Positions 13,771-26,423 of a stretch of 64,000 nucleotides of DNA are shown piece after piece. The notes under the pieces were generated by a model that saw nothing but the letters and a program-made list of their open reading frames with translations, did not search any database and was not told where the DNA came from. Positions within the stretch are counted from its first letter, which is position 1. Each line of letters begins with the position of its first letter. The translations under genes and the position numbers were made by a program. The stretch spans positions 2,688,001-2,752,000 of the forward strand of contig OZ245046.1 in NCBI GenBank assembly GCA_965224245.1. The letters run 5' to 3'. The stretch comes from Candidatus Eiseniibacteriota bacterium. Its GTDB lineage: Bacteria > Eisenbacteria > RBG-16-71-46 > CAZAMP01.

Positions 13771-15801
13771 ATGCCGACCGATCCTCCCGAGATGAGCCCG
13801 GCGCCCCCGAGAGACCCTGCGGTCCCGGCTCCTGCCTCGCGCCGAGCGCCGGGGGGATGCACCGGCACGCGCCACGGGACGCGCCCGCTCCACCGCGGCG
13901 GCGGCGACCCCGGCCCCTCGCGCATTCGCCCGTCGCGGATGAGCCGGCGCCGGACGGCGGTTCTCGTCAGCGTCCACGTGGTGTTCGCGATCCATCTGAC
14001 GCACTGGTGGATGACCGGCACCACGCTCTCGCCGATCGAGCCCTCCGAGTCGATGGAGACGCTGGAGACCGGGCGCGTCAACGCGGGCTTCATCTTCTTC
14101 GCGGCGGCGATCCTGGCCACGCTCGTGTTCGGGCGGATCTTCTGCGGCTGGGGCTGCCACATCGTGGCGCTCCAGGATCTGTGCGGCGCGCTGATGAAGC
14201 GGGCCGGCATCCGGCCGGTCCTGTTCCGCTCGCGACTCCTCGCATGGGTGCCGGTCGGGCTGGCGTTCTACATGTTCGTCTGGCCCACGCTCCGTCGCGA
14301 GGTGATCGCCCCGCTGGTCGCGCGTGCCTGGCCCGGCCAGGCCCGATGGCTGACCGACGTCGCTCCCTTCCCCGGCTTCGAGAACCACCTGGTCAAGTCG
14401 GACTTCTGGGCCACGTTTCCGCCGATCGCGGTGGCGATCCCGTTTCTCCTGATCTGCGGGTTCGCCGTCGTGTACGTGCTCGGCGCCAAGGGCTTCTGTG
14501 CCTACGGGTGCCCCTACGGCGGCGTCTTCGGGCCGGTGGACAAGCTGGCCGCGGGCAAGATCGTCGTCGATCTGGATGCCTGCGAGGGGTGCGGCCACTG
14601 CACCGCGCGCTGCACGTCGAACGTGCGGGTTCACGAGGAGATCCAGACCCACGGAATGGTCGTCGACACCGGGTGCATGAAGTGCATGGACTGCGTCAGC
14701 GTGTGCCCGAACGACGCGCTCTCCTATCGCTTCGCACGGCCGACGCTCTTCGCGGGCTCGCCCCGGCGCCCGCCGAAGCGCCGGCGGTACGACGTGAGCC
14801 TCGGCGCAGACGCCCTGCTCCTGGCGCTGTTCCTGGCGGCCTTCCTCGGCCTGCGCGGAGCCTATGGTCTCGTGCCGATGCTGATGTCGGTCGGGGTGGG
14901 GCTCACGACGGTGTTCCTGGCCTGGAAGCTCGTGCGCGTCGTCCGGGAGCGCCGTGCGCGGCTCCATCGCTTCGAGCTCGCGCGCGACGGTCGGCTCACC
15001 CGTTCGGGTCGCGTGTTCCTCGCGATCGCCGGGGGGTGGCTGCTGCTCGTGGTGCACACCTCGGCCGTCAACGTGCTGCGACTGCGCGGAGAGGCGCTCG
15101 ACCGGAGCATCGCCGTGTCACGCGAGGCGGTGTTCTCGGGTGACCGGTCCGAGGTTCCGTCGGCGATGCGAGAGCGTGCAGCGCGCGCCCGACGGCTGCT
15201 CGGGCTGGCCGCGCCGCTCTGGTCCGGCGGCGCCGGGCTGATCGCGACGCCGGGGCTGGATCTGCGTCTGGCCTGGCTGAGCCTGGTGGCCGGGGACCCC
15301 GAGGATGCGCTGCCTCGACTCGACGCACACCGCCGCCGCCACGGGGAGACGCCCGAGCTCACCGCGGACCTGGCGCGCGTGCGAGCGCTGACGGGCGACA
15401 CGGACGGCGCGATCGCGGCGCTCGAGGCGGCGATCACGGCCGTGCCGAGTTCCGAGGCGCGTGCGGCGCTCGCGCGGCTCTACCTGGACTCGGGGAATCC
15501 GGAGGCGGCGGTGCACGTATACGAGGAGACGACCGAGCCCCTCACCCGCGAGGATCGGCGGCGGCTCGCCGAGCTCTATCTCCGGGTGGGGAGGCCGGAC
15601 TCGGCGATCCAGCTGATGCAGCGGGCGAGCGTCGCCGCGCCGGACGACGTCGAGTCGATCCTGGACCTGGTGCACGTGATGAACGCCGCGGGGCGGACGT
15701 CCCTCGCGATCTCACAGCTCCGCCGGGCGCTCTCGCGCCACCCCGACGACCCGGCGCTGTCGAGGCTGCTCGAGATGCTCGAGCGCGAGTCATCCCGATG
15801 A
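13771..15801 (+). CDS. Membrane 4Fe-4S (NapH/CcoG-like polyferredoxin) protein with C-terminal TPRs
   Basis: GRIFCGWGC, FCAYGCPYG, CEGCGHCTARC, CMKCMDCVSVCP; several TM helices; TPR-like tail; start uncertain. Confidence 0.82.
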   Translation: MPTDPPEMSPAPPRDPAVPAPASRRAPGGCTGTRHGTRPLHRGGGDPGPSRIRPSRMSRRRTAVLVSVHVVFAIHLTHWWMTGTTLSPIEPSESMETLETGRVNAGFIFFAAAILATLVFGRIFCGWGCHIVALQDLCGALMKRAGIRPVLFRSRLLAWVPVGLAFYMFVWPTLRREVIAPLVARAWPGQARWLTDVAPFPGFENHLVKSDFWATFPPIAVAIPFLLICGFAVVYVLGAKGFCAYGCPYGGVFGPVDKLAAGKIVVDLDACEGCGHCTARCTSNVRVHEEIQTHGMVVDTGCMKCMDCVSVCPNDALSYRFARPTLFAGSPRRPPKRRRYDVSLGADALLLALFLAAFLGLRGAYGLVPMLMSVGVGLTTVFLAWKLVRVVRERRARLHRFELARDGRLTRSGRVFLAIAGGWLLLVVHTSAVNVLRLRGEALDRSIAVSREAVFSGDRSEVPSAMRERAARARRLLGLAAPLWSGGAGLIATPGLDLRLAWLSLVAGDPEDALPRLDAHRRRHGETPELTADLARVRALTGDTDGAIAALEAAITAVPSSEARAALARLYLDSGNPEAAVHVYEETTEPLTREDRRRLAELYLRVGRPDSAIQLMQRASVAAPDDVESILDLVHVMNAAGRTSLAISQLRRALSRHPDDPALSRLLEMLERESSR

Positions 15802-15831: not shown

Positions 15832-16614
15832 TCAGTCGGCGTACACCGACTTGATCCCGCTCCAGCTAACGGTCGAGACCGGCGTGGCCGGCGGAAGCAT
15901 CAGGAGTTGCTCGGTGGCCGCCTGGTACACCGTCCGGGTCGCCGCGTCCTGGACGAACACGACGACGTCCACGTTGGCGAGGTCCCAGCCGTCCTCGGCG
16001 TCTACGGCGATCGGCACGTCCACCACGTCGCCGGCCATCCGGGCCAGCGAGACCGACACACCGTCGGCGCTCGGATGGAAGCGCCGGAACACGTGGTGGT
16101 GCACGTCGATCCCGTTGGGAAACGCCTGGTGGATGTCGCTCTCGGTCAGCGCCAGCATCACGCGGACGTCGCCCTCGATCGGCGTCTCGACACCGATGCG
16201 CACGTTCACCGTGCCCGCGCCGTCGGTTTCGTTCACCGAGCCCGAGAGGGCGAGCGTCACCGGCGCCGGCACCGCGACCTCGCTGGCGTAGACCGAGGGA
16301 TAGCCGGACGTCGACGCCGTGCGGCCCGCGACGCGGATGGACGGCGCCGATCCGACGCCGTAGAACGAGCGGCGCGCGAGGTTCTCGTCCTGGTTCTCCA
16401 GGAAGAACGGATCACCGGCGTATGGAAACGGCACGTGGTACTCGATGGCCACCACGTCGGGGTGATCGAAGATCCAGGACTTGAGGGTCGGATCCACCGA
16501 CCCGCAGATCCCTCAGGCGTAGTTCGTGAAGTGCTCGATCAGCACCGACCGCGGCGCGGACGAAGCGAGGGTCGGGATGGCGAGCAGGGCCGCGAGCGCG
16601 AGTCGGCTGAACAT
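15832..16614 (-). CDS. Predicted selenoprotein: exported Omp28/thioredoxin-like protein with UxxC motif (in-frame TGA at 16513-16515)
   Basis: GGAG RBS, signal peptide MFSRLALAALLAIPTLASSA, then RSVLIEHFTNYA-TGA-GIC in frame with the downstream ORF (IEYHV, ARRSFYGV, ALTES, HHHVFR, LANVDVVVFVQD...VYQA typical of Omp28-related proteins); SECIS-like hairpin follows. Confidence 0.85.
16485..16503 (-). promoter_or_regulatory. Putative bacterial SECIS element
   Basis: Perfect 7-bp stem GGGUCGG/CCGACCC with UGGAU loop; stem starts 9 nt and loop 16 nt after the UGA; G at loop position 2. Confidence 0.75.
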
Positions 16615-16717
16615 GGTGTCTCCAGCGTACGGTCGGTGAGAGCCGGTCCCGGCTGAGCCGGGTGACGTCGAGGGTCTGGATTGACGGTGTTTCGATGCGT
16701 CATCGGCCCGAATCGGT

Positions 16718-17215
16718 TCAGACCTCGGCCGCCAGACAGCACTTCTTGTACTTCTTGCCGCTCCCACACGGACAGGGGTCGTTCCGGCCGACCTTGGGCT
16801 CGTCCCGGTGAATGGGCGATTGCTTCACCATCTCGCCCTCCGAGAAGACCCAGGTCCCGTCCACGCGTTCGAACCTGGCGAGCTCGTGGTGCGTGGCCAC
16901 CTTGTCTCCGACCTTGTACGTGGCCGTGAACTCGACGGACCCCTGATCGTCGTCCTTCCCGCCGGCCTCGGTCGACTTGACCTCGAAGCCGAGCCACGTG
17001 GCGGCCTCGCCCCACTGCTCGGTCTCCTTCGGGTCGTAGTCGGTCCGGGCGCTGGGATGCAGGGTCTCGCCGAGGTAGTCGTACGCCTTCTTCACGTAGG
17101 CCGAGTACCGCGAGCGCATCAGCTCGACGGCGGTCTCGGGCGTCTCGGCGCCCGAGATGAAGCGACCGCAGCACGTCTCGTACGCCGGGCCGGCTCCGCA
17201 GGGACATGCACTCAT
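16718..17215 (-). CDS. ychJ: YchJ family protein with SEC-C motifs
   Basis: [26 protein letters not shown]...[19 protein letters not shown]. Confidence 0.92.
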
Positions 17216-17366: not shown

Positions 17367-18860
17367 CTAGAAACGAGACTGGAAGGTCTCCAGCTCCCAC
17401 TTGTCCTTCTTCTCGTTGAGCGTGGCGCAGAGGATCTTCTTGCCATCGGTCCGGACGTTCACGAGCCCGTACGTCACCGAGTCGACCACCCGGGTGCCGC
17501 GATGATACGAGCGGGAGACCTTCTCCGGGTTCAGGTCTCCCGAACGCTGTACCTCGTAGCGAAGGGTCGCCTTCTCGGCCGGCGTCAACGTCACACCGGC
17601 CGGCGCCGTTCCCGGGTAGTCGGCGTCCTGGATGGACGTCAGCCGACCGATGTCGATGCTGCGCGAGATCTCGGTGGAGTACACGAGCGGCGTCTTCATC
17701 TCGTCGTTGGCGATCGTCACGTGGCCCACCTGGCCCGCCGTCGCCACGATGGAGGGGCGCGGATGGGAGTGTCCCTCGTTGTCGCCGGACGAGATCACGG
17801 TCGCCGCGGCGCCCATCGCCTGGAGAAATGTATACGAGACGTCCTCGCTGCCGTGGTGGCACCCCTTGGCCACGTCACACGCGAGATCCAGCCGACTGTC
17901 CACATCCTCGAGGAGAGCGGCCATCGATCGCTTGTTCAGGTCGCCGGTGAGAAGGATGCGCGTGTTCTTGTAGTCGAGTCGCAAGAGAAGGCTGTGCCCG
18001 TTGGTGTTCTGGCTGGTCGACGACGTGTAAGCGCGGTACGCGGGTCCTCCCGCGCCGTCGTCGAACTCCACCGGCGCGAGGATCTTCAACGTCGCCCGCG
18101 GCTTCCCCGAACGGGGCTCGAAGCCCGGCACCCAGCCGTCGTGATGGCTCAGGCGCCGGATGTCGCAGCCGTTGGCGATCGCGGCGGTCATGAAGTTCGC
18201 CCACTCTCCCTGGAGCTTAGGGCCGGGCTTCGATGGATCCAGCGCGTCCTTGACCGCGGTGCGATTGCCGAGGAGCTGAACCAGGAACTTCGTGCCACCG
18301 ATCTTCCGGATCGGACCGAGCCATCTCCCGCCGCCGGGCTTCCGCCACCACGACACCCCCGCGTGGTACAGGACGTCGACGTCGACGCCCTTGGCGTCGA
18401 GCTCCGCGGTCGCCTCCGGGGTCGTGCTCAGCAGGTCCCAGAGCCCACCGTAGTGGTCGGAGTCACAGTGCGAGGCAATCATCGCGTCGAGCTTGATTCG
18501 GGTCTTTCGGTAGTCCTTGGCGAACTTCCAGTCCACGAAGTCGGCTGCGTTCTTGCCCGTCGCCTGGCGCTCTCGGATGTACCCGCCGTCGATCAGGATG
18601 TGCCTGCGATCGGGTGTGCAGATCAGAACGCCATCCCCTTGGCCGACGTCGATGAAGTAGACCTCACACAGCGCCTCGCCGCCGAGTGCGCTCGTGTCGA
18701 CCGTTCCCGTACGGCCTCGCGCCTTCACCGTGGTCTTGCCGCCGCTCGCGCTCACGACCTCGACCTGATCGCCCCACAAGAGCTCGATCTTCCGGGTCTT
18801 TCCTCCCGAGACGTACCTGAGCGTTGCCGTGTCGGTGCGGACGTAGTCCTTCGCCATCAT
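17367..18860 (-). CDS. MBL-fold metallo-hydrolase (ComEC/Rec2-like beta-lactamase domain), cytoplasmic
   Basis: FIDVGQGDG, ILIDGG, SHCDSDHYGGL, LLTGDL, HHGS, ISSG...HSHP; GGAGG RBS before MMAKDY. Confidence 0.85.
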   Translation of the reverse strand: MMAKDYVRTDTATLRYVSGGKTRKIELLWGDQVEVVSASGGKTTVKARGRTGTVDTSALGGEALCEVYFIDVGQGDGVLICTPDRRHILIDGGYIRERQATGKNAADFVDWKFAKDYRKTRIKLDAMIASHCDSDHYGGLWDLLSTTPEATAELDAKGVDVDVLYHAGVSWWRKPGGGRWLGPIRKIGGTKFLVQLLGNRTAVKDALDPSKPGPKLQGEWANFMTAAIANGCDIRRLSHHDGWVPGFEPRSGKPRATLKILAPVEFDDGAGGPAYRAYTSSTSQNTNGHSLLLRLDYKNTRILLTGDLNKRSMAALLEDVDSRLDLACDVAKGCHHGSEDVSYTFLQAMGAAATVISSGDNEGHSHPRPSIVATAGQVGHVTIANDEMKTPLVYSTEISRSIDIGRLTSIQDADYPGTAPAGVTLTPAEKATLRYEVQRSGDLNPEKVSRSYHRGTRVVDSVTYGLVNVRTDGKKILCATLNEKKDKWELETFQSRF

Positions 18861-19074
18861 GTGCCTCCATCGGATCGAGCTCTCCACGCGAGAGGAGCGC
18901 GTGGTCGACATGTACCAATTCCAAATGAAGTAGCGCCGATAATTCAACTATGGGAACACGATTCTGCGACGCGCGCAAGCACTTGCGGTCCGGGCGGCTG
19001 CGCGGTGGACGTGACGGCGCCCGATCGCGATACTCCGGAGTTTCCGGATCGGATCCTCCAGGCAGGAGCCACGC

Positions 19075-25010: not shown

Positions 25011-26423
25011 CTACCGCGCGTCGGCCTCCGGTGCATAACGCGCCTTCACGCCCCCCCACGACGACCGTGTGACCGGCGTGTCGAGACACGACTCGTCACC
25101 CGCCCCGATCGTCTGGTCGCAGGTGACGCCCGCGGCGCAGGGTCCTCCTTCGGTGACGCCCACGTCCACGTCGTCGGTGGGCGCGCTCACGCAGGACGGC
25201 CGCGCGCAGAAGCACTCGGCCCCCGCGGCGGTGCCGTTCGTGGCCTCGAACGAGGCGTCGCCGAGAATCACGACCCCACCCTCGTCGATCGAGGAGCAGG
25301 TGGCCGTTCCGCGGGCGCTCTCGCCCGAGAGCCAGCCGTCCACCCCCGCGTCCGCGCAGTTCGCGCCGATCAGGGTGGTCGTCAGGTCGACGGCACCGGT
25401 GCCGGTGACCGCGATCCCGCCCCCGCTCGCCGCCGCGTTCCCGGCGACCGTCGTCGATGCCATGATGACGCTCGAGTCGACCACGTAGACGCCGCCACCG
25501 AGGCCGGACGCGATCCCGTCTCCCTCGGCGCGGTTGCCCACGACGCGCGTGTTCACGAGCGTGATGGCGGACGCGTCGCTGACCGAGATGCCCGCGCCGT
25601 TCGCCAGGGTGACGTTGCCGGCCACCAGGCATCGATCGAGCGTGCCCGTGCAGTCGTAGGTCCAGACGAGCCCACCGGTGAGGTTGCTCGTGATCGTACA
25701 CTCGGTGAGATCCGAGCGTGACACCTCCTGCGTCCACATGCCGCGGAGCCCGTTGTCCGTGATCGTGCACCGGGTCAGCGTCATGTTCGAGTGGAGGTTG
25801 ACCACGCCGTGCCACGTGTTGCCGGAGACGGTGGTCAACGTGATCAGCGTGTTGCCGACGTGTCCTGAGATGCCCACGCCGGTGTTGTCCACGACCTCGC
25901 ACTGGATGACGCGCGATCGGTCGTAGTAGCACATCAGGGCGCCGCCAGACGGGGACGTGTTGCCGGTGATGATGCAGCCCCGGATCGTGGGATCGGAACG
26001 CTTGATGTAGATGCCGGCGCCGATCTGGTTCTGCCAGCCGCCCTCGTTGCGGAGGTATCCGCCCCGGATGGTCAGGAACTCGACCTTCGTGGTGGACGGC
26101 TCCTCGTTCGTGATCAGGATCACGCGCGCCGGGTCCGCATCGCTGCCCATGGCGTCGATGATGCACGCCGTCGGATCCTCGCTCCGCGACCGGAGGACGA
26201 TGTTCTTTCCCCGGAAGCTGATGTTCCGGTTGCCTTCGCCGGAGTAGACGCCGTCCTCGAGCTCGATCACGGACCAGTCGTGCGCGAGATCGATCGCGGC
26301 CTGGATGTTGGGCGCGTCACCGAGCCCGTCGGGTCGCAGGCGAAACGTCTCGGCCGTGGAGGCGCGCGTGAAGACGAGAGCGGTGACGACGAGACACGTG
26401 ACGGCGAGTCGCTGAGCACGCAT
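25011..26423 (-). CDS. Secreted right-handed parallel beta-helix repeat protein with SWGGVK C-terminal tail
   Basis: Signal peptide; DG.GD.P.IQAAID, G.Y.GEGNRNISF.GK, repeated I..N...GG units; ends TPVTRSSWGGVKARY. Confidence 0.85.
   Translation of the reverse strand: MRAQRLAVTCLVVTALVFTRASTAETFRLRPDGLGDAPNIQAAIDLAHDWSVIELEDGVYSGEGNRNISFRGKNIVLRSRSEDPTACIIDAMGSDADPARVILITNEEPSTTKVEFLTIRGGYLRNEGGWQNQIGAGIYIKRSDPTIRGCIITGNTSPSGGALMCYYDRSRVIQCEVVDNTGVGISGHVGNTLITLTTVSGNTWHGVVNLHSNMTLTRCTITDNGLRGMWTQEVSRSDLTECTITSNLTGGLVWTYDCTGTLDRCLVAGNVTLANGAGISVSDASAITLVNTRVVGNRAEGDGIASGLGGGVYVVDSSVIMASTTVAGNAAASGGGIAVTGTGAVDLTTTLIGANCADAGVDGWLSGESARGTATCSSIDEGGVVILGDASFEATNGTAAGAECFCARPSCVSAPTDDVDVGVTEGGPCAAGVTCDQTIGAGDESCLDTPVTRSSWGGVKARYAPEADAR

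Follow-up and report, generated by a model that had tools for sequence, protein, structure and literature searches.

The closest described relatives of the gene analysed here are the predicted selenoproteins of the group GOS_C, which were recognized in ocean reads. In the description given by Zhang & Gladyshev 2008 (PMC2398784), this group comprises 74 selenocysteine (Sec, U) and 312 Cys sequences, with a thioredoxin-like fold, a UxxC motif, hairpins resembling the selenocysteine insertion sequence (SECIS), and no assigned function. Table 1 of a 2026 review (PMC13188914) lists it as 'Hypothetical protein GOS_C', with the motif UxxC, the 2008 study as source, and the accession NF045500, a family model that is named 'Omp28-related selenoprotein'; the family studied here was linked to this literature solely by the accession given in that review. 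The locus that we examined (15832..16614, minus strand) lies in a 64,000-nucleotide stretch of DNA from Candidatus Eiseniibacteriota bacterium, hereafter the window, which corresponds to C1:2688001-2752000; the assembly has 27 contigs, a size of 6.9 Mb, and 97% completeness. We conclude that this locus is very probably one real selenoprotein gene that annotation has split in two. The kind of protein is already known, having first been predicted in 2008, and the focal protein is a distant, uncatalogued branch of GOS_C/NF045500. As far as the published description of GOS_C goes, the two have in common a predicted selenoprotein with a thioredoxin-like fold, the UxxC motif, Cys-containing homologs, and a SECIS-like hairpin after the UGA; they differ in that GOS_C was defined on marine reads, whereas the focal clade belongs to uncultured Eisenbacteria. 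The kinship is judged by profile score and by that description: the focal protein scored 48 bits with NF045500 against a cut-off of 200, aligning to profile positions 27-271 of 377, the focal locus scored 38.7 bits in a genome search with this model, and the cut-off was reached in none of 201 genomes of the phylum.

Structural relatives are found among Cys-containing proteins. HBP35, the 35-kDa hemin-binding protein of Porphyromonas gingivalis (5y1a), is the best structural match across both domains of the focal protein (264 columns) and has a CxxC opposite the focal UxxC, but it is only 17% identical in sequence and has Cys where the focal protein has Sec. As reported in PMC2907840, HBP35 is a surface protein whose recombinant form has thioredoxin activity that is gone when its two cysteines are mutated; the same source describes a conserved C-terminal domain that attaches it to the surface, and the focal protein has no such domain. 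DUF1223 (PF06764; Atu2684 of Agrobacterium, 2axo) comes first among solved structures in the sequence-profile search (E value 3.3e-10), with ELFTSQGCASCP opposite the focal UxxC region; it is a Cys form with no assigned function. Omp28 (PF11551; 2r2c) matches the beta domain of the focal protein structurally. Other exported thioredoxin-fold selenoproteins with UxxC that appear in Table 1 of PMC13188914 (DsbA-like, thiol:disulfide interchange protein, Prx-like/TlpA-like) share the logic of placing Sec in the position of the first Cys, but the focal architecture differs from theirs in combining a thioredoxin domain, an Omp28-type beta-sandwich, and a short tail. A database literature search found no publication joining Omp28 or DUF1223 with a selenoprotein, or Eisenbacteria with selenocysteine, and neither Omp28 nor HBP35 occurs in the text of the 2022 review PMC9312934.

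The original prediction, made from the window alone, was that two ORFs form a single exported selenoprotein gene interrupted by one TGA. The ORF listing contains ORF 16513..16767 (84 aa, ending ...RSVLIEHFTNYA) and ORF 15832..16497 (221 aa, with a GTG start, MDPTLK...), both on the minus strand and in the same frame, and the sole break between them is the in-frame TGA at 16515-16513, as had been claimed. Reading through this codon from the ATG at 16614-16612 yields 260 residues with U34 in the context RSVLIEHFTNYA-U-GIC-GSVDP (FTNYA-U-GIC-GSVDP). The GGAG ribosome-binding site and the signal peptide that had been proposed to precede the motif were also found: GGAG is at 16623-16620, and residues 1-19, judged by eye, are laid out in n, h, and c regions as in a signal peptide and contain a single Arg, a hydrophobic stretch, and LAS-S. 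The features of the gene are as follows.

15832..16614, minus strand: whole selenoprotein gene, 260 codons plus terminal TGA, as one frame with read-through at codon 34
16620..16623, minus strand: GGAG ribosome-binding site, 5 nt ahead of the ATG, read from the sequence
16558..16614, minus strand: start codon and signal-peptide-like N-terminus, residues 1-19 (MFSRLALAALLAIPTLASS), from the sequence layout
16513..16515, minus strand: candidate Sec codon 34, the in-frame TGA, U of UxxC, from the homolog codon alignment
16504..16506, minus strand: Cys37 codon, predicted resolving cysteine of UxxC, an invariant column in the 34-sequence alignment
16485..16503, minus strand: predicted SECIS core, 7-bp stem and 5-nt loop UGGAU, from pairing and covariation in 14 orthologs
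16476..16512, minus strand: predicted extended SECIS stem with a less conserved lower helix, from the minimum free energy (MFE) fold of the focal sequence
16276..16545, minus strand: thioredoxin-fold domain, residues 24-113, from the order of secondary structure in the AlphaFold2 model and the profile alignment to 1fo5, 2axo, and 5y1a
16342..16344, minus strand: Pro91 codon, presumed cis-proline, an invariant column aligned with VPT of thioredoxin 1fo5
15907..16260, minus strand: all-beta (sandwich) domain, residues 119-236, which holds the Omp28 Pfam match, from Pfam, the model, and the fold search (2r2c Omp28 domain, 5y1a)
15835..15873, minus strand: C-terminal tail TVSWSGIKSVYAD, residues 248-260, an uncatalogued tag, from a genome-wide motif count and a short helix (251-258) in the model
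15832..15834, minus strand: true stop codon, likewise TGA, from the sequence

We used homologs to determine which residue stands opposite the TGA. A search of a collection of 5.8 billion proteins gave 16 matches, one of them the window's own 221-aa piece, which is the only part of the focal protein that the database holds. The other 15 all lack the part upstream of the TGA; 14 begin at VDPPLK after UxxCG and one begins six residues later, the pattern left by gene callers that stop at a conserved TGA. The expectation that standard annotation would miss the gene was thus borne out for 15 of 15 homologs as well as for the focal gene. At the DNA level, the frame in four public Candidatus Eisenbacteria metagenome-assembled genomes (MAGs) runs upstream through the stop (...H[WY]TNF[RQ]-stop-xxCG...) up to a signal peptide, and two archaeal relatives read ...FTS[AV]N-C-TYC-P. 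Further loci were obtained from ten metagenome contigs, and 30 came from scanning 201 genomes of the phylum. Alignment of the read-through protein to the fetched loci by tblastn gave 45 alignments, 43 of which span codon 34 and represent 38 distinct sequences. The codon aligned to position 34 is TGA in 23, TGC in 13, and TGT in 2 of the 38; no other codon occurs, so that Cys (15/38) and neither Trp nor any other residue is found opposite the TGA. The flanks are kept on both sides, with VL.E.FTN before and xxC after the codon, and all 14 of the close orthologs retain the TGA. These data establish the structure of the gene and the pairing of Sec with Cys within the family, and from sequence comparison the TGA at 16515-16513 is almost certainly a selenocysteine codon.

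A potential alternative is that the TGA is a genuine stop, the gene being decayed or split, with just a 221-aa, GTG-started product made or nothing at all. Gene callers and the protein database treat the codon in this way, the folding energy of the hairpin after the TGA is unexceptional, and another Sec-form paralog in the same genome looks frame-shifted, so decay does occur in the family. Set against this, 23 distinct sequences, drawn from many genomes, share this TGA at the equivalent codon and have both flanks conserved, and the 221-aa product would lack the signal peptide together with the first strand and the active site of its thioredoxin fold. In a tree of 34 sequences, the focal protein falls in an all-Sec clade of 11 rows (support 99/96), in which it branches first, and a nonsense mutation would not persist across such a clade. 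We therefore regard a genuine stop as very improbable. The Sec/Cys label on this tree requires at least 3 changes, which indicates repeated switching between Sec and Cys inside one family.

We also examined the hairpin that had been predicted to lie just after the TGA. It is present as claimed: GGGUCGG-UGGAU-CCGACCC at 16503-16485 forms a perfect 7-bp stem that starts 9 nt past the UGA, the loop begins 16 nt past the UGA, and the loop UGGAU has G at positions 2 and 3. The bacterial SECIS model quoted in PMC13188914 has a loop of 3-9 nt, a stem of 4-16 bp, a G in the first two loop positions, a spacing of 16-37 nt, and an MFE of -7.5 or lower; the focal hairpin, with a loop of 5 nt, a stem of 7 bp, and a spacing of 16 nt, agrees with the quoted model in all of its constraints. 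The 14 distinct orthologs align over 66 nt without gaps, and the TGA and the loop TGGAT are invariant in all 14. From the lower stem, a 2-bp extension (UG/CA) was the part compared across orthologs, and the resulting 9-pair stem is paired in 94.4% of 126 cells; shifting the 3' partner by 1-3 columns lowers this to 39-66%. Both sides have changed in four of the nine stem pairs (GC to CG, GC to AU, GC to UA, and UA to CG). The covariation score of 0.258 was reached by 0 of 500 shuffles, a control that overstates the significance because the 14 orthologs are related. Some of the stem changes shift amino acids in step, with Ser/Thr in the window compared to Val/Pro in most orthologs. The Asp codon of the loop is GAT in 14/14 orthologs, GAT accounting for only 24% of Asp codons in the focal genome, and the stem-pairing Pro codon of most orthologs, CCA, makes up 5% of Pro codons there. 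Conservation of the stem with compensatory changes is thus a feature of the orthologs, and it supports the SECIS-like reading.

Hairpins were also compared between Sec and Cys forms across the wider family. In the remoter Sec forms, other hairpins lie equally far from the codon, their loops containing GU or GG, and the Cys forms have no consistent hairpin at the SECIS position. Over the 45 nt past codon 34, the median folding energy is -18.6 kcal/mol for Sec forms (n = 23) and -11.8 kcal/mol for Cys forms (n = 15) at equal G+C (Mann-Whitney p = 3e-4, the sequences being non-independent).

The genome was searched for the components of selenocysteine synthesis and insertion, a check that had been named for the prediction. 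Profile matches were found for SelA (427.6 bits, cut-off 22.8), SelB (353.4 bits summed, cut-off 242), and SelD (378.4 bits, cut-off 125), all three above their curated cut-offs, and there is one tRNA-Sec, with anticodon tca. The focal genome thus encodes selA, selB, selD, and tRNA-Sec. The SelD gene (C1:4218184-4219107, plus strand) has one in-frame TGA of its own, and SelD is itself probably a selenoprotein in this genome.

A second alternative is that the UGA is read without selenium, as Cys or Trp, by near-cognate decoding or by a mis-charged tRNA-Sec, the product being an ordinary CxxC or WxxC protein. Cys forms are indeed common, making up 15 of the 38 distinct sequences, and most of the best 150 representatives of the wider family begin before the motif. 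We nevertheless consider selenium-free read-through highly unlikely. The Sec pathway is complete and its own SelD has an in-frame TGA; Sec forms have a conserved, covarying hairpin at the SECIS distance, and Cys forms lack any consistent equivalent; and TGA also ends the focal gene, so that there is no general reassignment of this codon. The weakest alternative, a sequencing or assembly error of TGC or TGG, could be raised on the grounds that the assembly is of metagenome type and that the runs covering the site are all from one sample, but we give it almost no credence since contigs of two runs have 0 differences here and the TGA recurs in independent ortholog assemblies, namely four public MAGs and ten metagenome contigs.

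Several points weigh against the conclusion that this locus is a selenoprotein gene. The case is built from sequence and modelling, with selenium incorporation and expression as predictions. The energy of the hairpin is unexceptional for DNA of 69% G+C (z = -0.42 for the 66-nt stretch, with 61 of 200 shuffles as stable); single-sequence folding energy compared to shuffles was accordingly set aside as uninformative in such G+C-rich DNA, and the signal above chance comes from the retention of the TGA, the hairpin, and the flanking protein sequence in relatives, not from folding energy. In addition to the relatedness of the orthologs already mentioned, the hairpin lies inside the conserved coding sequence G-[SV]-V-D-P-[TP]-L, so its conservation is partly at the protein level, and three orthologs have one mismatched stem pair each. 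In an Rfam search of 16380-16640 at E values up to 10, the single match was to a snoRNA (E value 4.1), which we took as chance, and no SECIS or other pertinent family came up. No other row of the clade diverges as much as the focal protein, whose end branch measures 0.76. The neighbouring genes, listed below, do not hint at a function, and orthologs lack them as neighbours. Finally, the read support comes from one sample, which is perhaps the assembly's own source; the two run-level assemblies that reproduce the focal stretch with 0 differences passed the check on reads that had been proposed, and they do so as weak support for this reason. Coverage by two other runs, X4 and X5, does not extend to the TGA. 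A joint in an X5 contig that skips 16264-16542 was rejected as a variant of the locus, as it has 21 letters on its shorter side and the run has a word share of 0.05; it was attributed to another organism's relative. No RNA dataset is listed as containing the focal stretch.

The fold of the protein was determined by modelling and by comparison to solved structures. In the alignment of 34 sequences, each a read-through or a Cys form, exactly three columns are invariant, U/C34, C37, and P91, and these align with the CxxC and the cis-proline of thioredoxins. An AlphaFold2 model built on this alignment has a mean predicted local distance difference test (pLDDT) score of 93.1 and a predicted template modelling (pTM) score of 0.86. 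The model has the order beta-(UxxC)-alpha-beta-alpha-beta-beta-alpha, followed by a beta-sandwich: a strand (24-30) leads to U34/C37 and helix 37-49, then come strand 54-60, helices 69-85, and P91, then strands 92-95 and 98-100 and helix 105-113. The UxxC is thus at the start of helix 1 and P91 stands before strand 3. A short terminal helix spans 251-258, and residues 1-20 have pLDDT values of 57-68; the N-termini of orthologs are comparable. The best Foldseek matches are HBP35 (5y1a; E value 3.2e-13, TMq 0.71), DUF1223 (2axo; 5.2e-9), and Omp28 (2r2c; 6.2e-5), and an alignment of the family profile to solved structures places U34 opposite the first Cys of the CxxC in 2axo, thioredoxin 1fo5, and HBP35. 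The position of the UxxC, the conserved proline, and the order of elements in the model point to a thioredoxin-fold oxidoreductase.

Domain models gave results in line with this fold. Pfam PF11551 Omp28 matched residues 85-234 with 49.3 bits, above its gathering score of 34.9. PF06764 DUF1223 matched weakly across the whole length, with 17.2 bits against a gathering score of 30.7, and NCBIfam NF033782 'Omp28 family outer membrane lipoprotein' gave 36.9 bits, under its cut-off of 150. The focal protein is not a lipoprotein of the NF033782 type, because it has no lipobox cysteine, there being no Cys before residue 34. Pfam, the profile search of solved structures, and the fold search agree on the Omp28/thioredoxin-like character that had been proposed. 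We suggest that the focal protein is an exported thiol-disulfide oxidoreductase of the HBP35/Omp28/DUF1223 superfamily with a selenenylsulfide couple, an assignment in which activity and substrate are predicted from homology.

The following mechanism would be consistent with these data. The gene at 15832-16614 (minus strand) would encode a 260-residue exported thiol-disulfide oxidoreductase in which the attacking first Cys of the CxxC is Sec (U34-G-I-C37). The mRNA hairpin after the UGA would act as a SECIS and bind SelB with Sec-tRNA(Sec), so that UGA34 is read as selenocysteine by the standard bacterial mechanism, and the terminal UGA at 15834-15832 would work as a stop. The N-terminal signal peptide would carry the protein across the inner membrane. 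There, based on homology to HBP35 and thioredoxin, U34 and C37 may cycle between the selenol/thiol and the selenenylsulfide, reducing or exchanging disulfides of envelope or external substrates.

The wider domain family is large, with 24,529 cluster representatives at E values up to 0.001 and 3,183 at E values up to 1e-30. Five of the best 150 representatives have their own residue 1-2 aligned to profile positions 30-35, which marks these five as truncated Sec forms. The focal genome has four family copies: the focal UGIC, a CPPC copy at C1:3405541, a CDGC copy at C1:3865108, and a UPTC Sec form at C1:5213938. The last of these (C1:5213938-5214598, plus strand; ...MEKLTNTA-U-PTC-PGASRA...) passes into another frame after about 50 residues and is either a frameshifted pseudogene or an assembly error. 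An in-frame TGA within a match of the genome search is not always at codon 34, as in the copy at C1:3865108, which has CDGC, and such counts were not used as counts of Sec forms. Eisenbacteria also contain tandem arrays of paralogs in open frames of about 700 residues (for example G110:C9:68060-73330 and G110:C10:35409-42883); many of these frames have one in-frame TGA, and none scores above the NF045500 cut-off.

The C-terminal tail was examined for its distribution in the focal genome. The SWxxIK tail that had been pointed out is real: the motif [ST]W[GSA]x[ILVM]K was counted 112 times in stop-to-stop frames 100 aa or longer, in 91 cases no more than 12 residues from the stop, and it behaves as a C-terminal tag. 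The tag often comes after TPV and before xx[YF]R, and a second case in the window is the ORF ending near 25013 (minus strand). No Pfam or NCBIfam model matched over the tail of the focal protein. Among the database homologs, 12 of 15 are 303-311 aa long and carry the FlgD-Ig-like C-terminal domain PF13860; the focal protein and the three remaining homologs (221-222 aa) are without this domain and end in ...SW[SG]x[ILV]K.... A type IX sorting domain (type A or PF13860) was not detected on the focal protein by Pfam or NCBIfam at E values up to 1. The focal genome does have parts of the type IX secretion system, with SprA (540 bits summed) and PorU (469.6 bits) both above their cut-offs and a sub-threshold PorV-like gene beside PorU. 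These are located at C1:2570249-2575325 (minus strand; PorU with the adjoining PorV-like gene) and C1:2013027-2017832 (minus strand; SprA). About 50 other open frames match the PorU model just over its final 80-100 positions (roughly 970-1095), a stretch that may represent a C-terminal sorting domain.

Export of the focal protein across the inner membrane is likely on the evidence of its N-terminus, and a surface or extracellular location is possible. The original prediction thus stands with respect to the Sec redox protein, the SECIS, the fold, and the missed annotation; its placement of the protein on the surface or outside the cell is a conjecture, as the C-terminal sorting domain of the orthologs is absent and the SWxxIK tail is an uncharacterised tag. 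We tentatively raise the possibility, which we consider somewhat doubtful, that the protein is a selenoenzyme that the cell displays on its surface or releases from it, its address being the tag ...[ST]W[GSA]x[ILVM]Kxx[YF]... in place of the type IX domain of most orthologs, and that Eisenbacteria have a large hidden extracytoplasmic set of thioredoxin-like proteins that switch between Sec and Cys, with several paralogs per genome, often in frames of about 700 residues. If true, this would mean selenium-based redox chemistry outside the cytoplasm in a common soil phylum.

In public databases, the focal gene and its orthologs are represented by proteins truncated at the N-terminus, from which the signal peptide and the active site are missing. 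Automatic pipelines will keep missing the clade because the NF045500 model does not reach it (0/201 genomes), and a model made from the read-through alignment would allow such genes to be called correctly. The analysis adds a branch from a soil phylum to a selenoprotein group that was defined on marine reads, and gives this group a structural link to HBP35, a surface protein whose thioredoxin activity has been measured; knowledge of how selenocysteine is decoded is unchanged by it.

The genes that flank the focal gene are as follows.

16718-17215, minus strand: YchJ/SEC-C protein, the upstream gene
13771-15801, plus strand: 676-aa membrane 4Fe-4S and TPR protein, downstream and convergent, with NapH-like Fer4_5, Fer4_7, and C-terminal TPR repeats
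17367-18947, minus strand: metallo-beta-lactamase-fold protein

A search for these three genes in 45 loci (L013-L058) matched only the window's own locus (L029). A conserved cassette of redox partners was dropped as a candidate, since the flanking genes are not beside orthologs. At 16737-16799, the contigs of all four runs pile up with summed depths of up to several hundred; this region is the SEC-C motif that ends the YchJ-like gene and that many organisms in the samples share.

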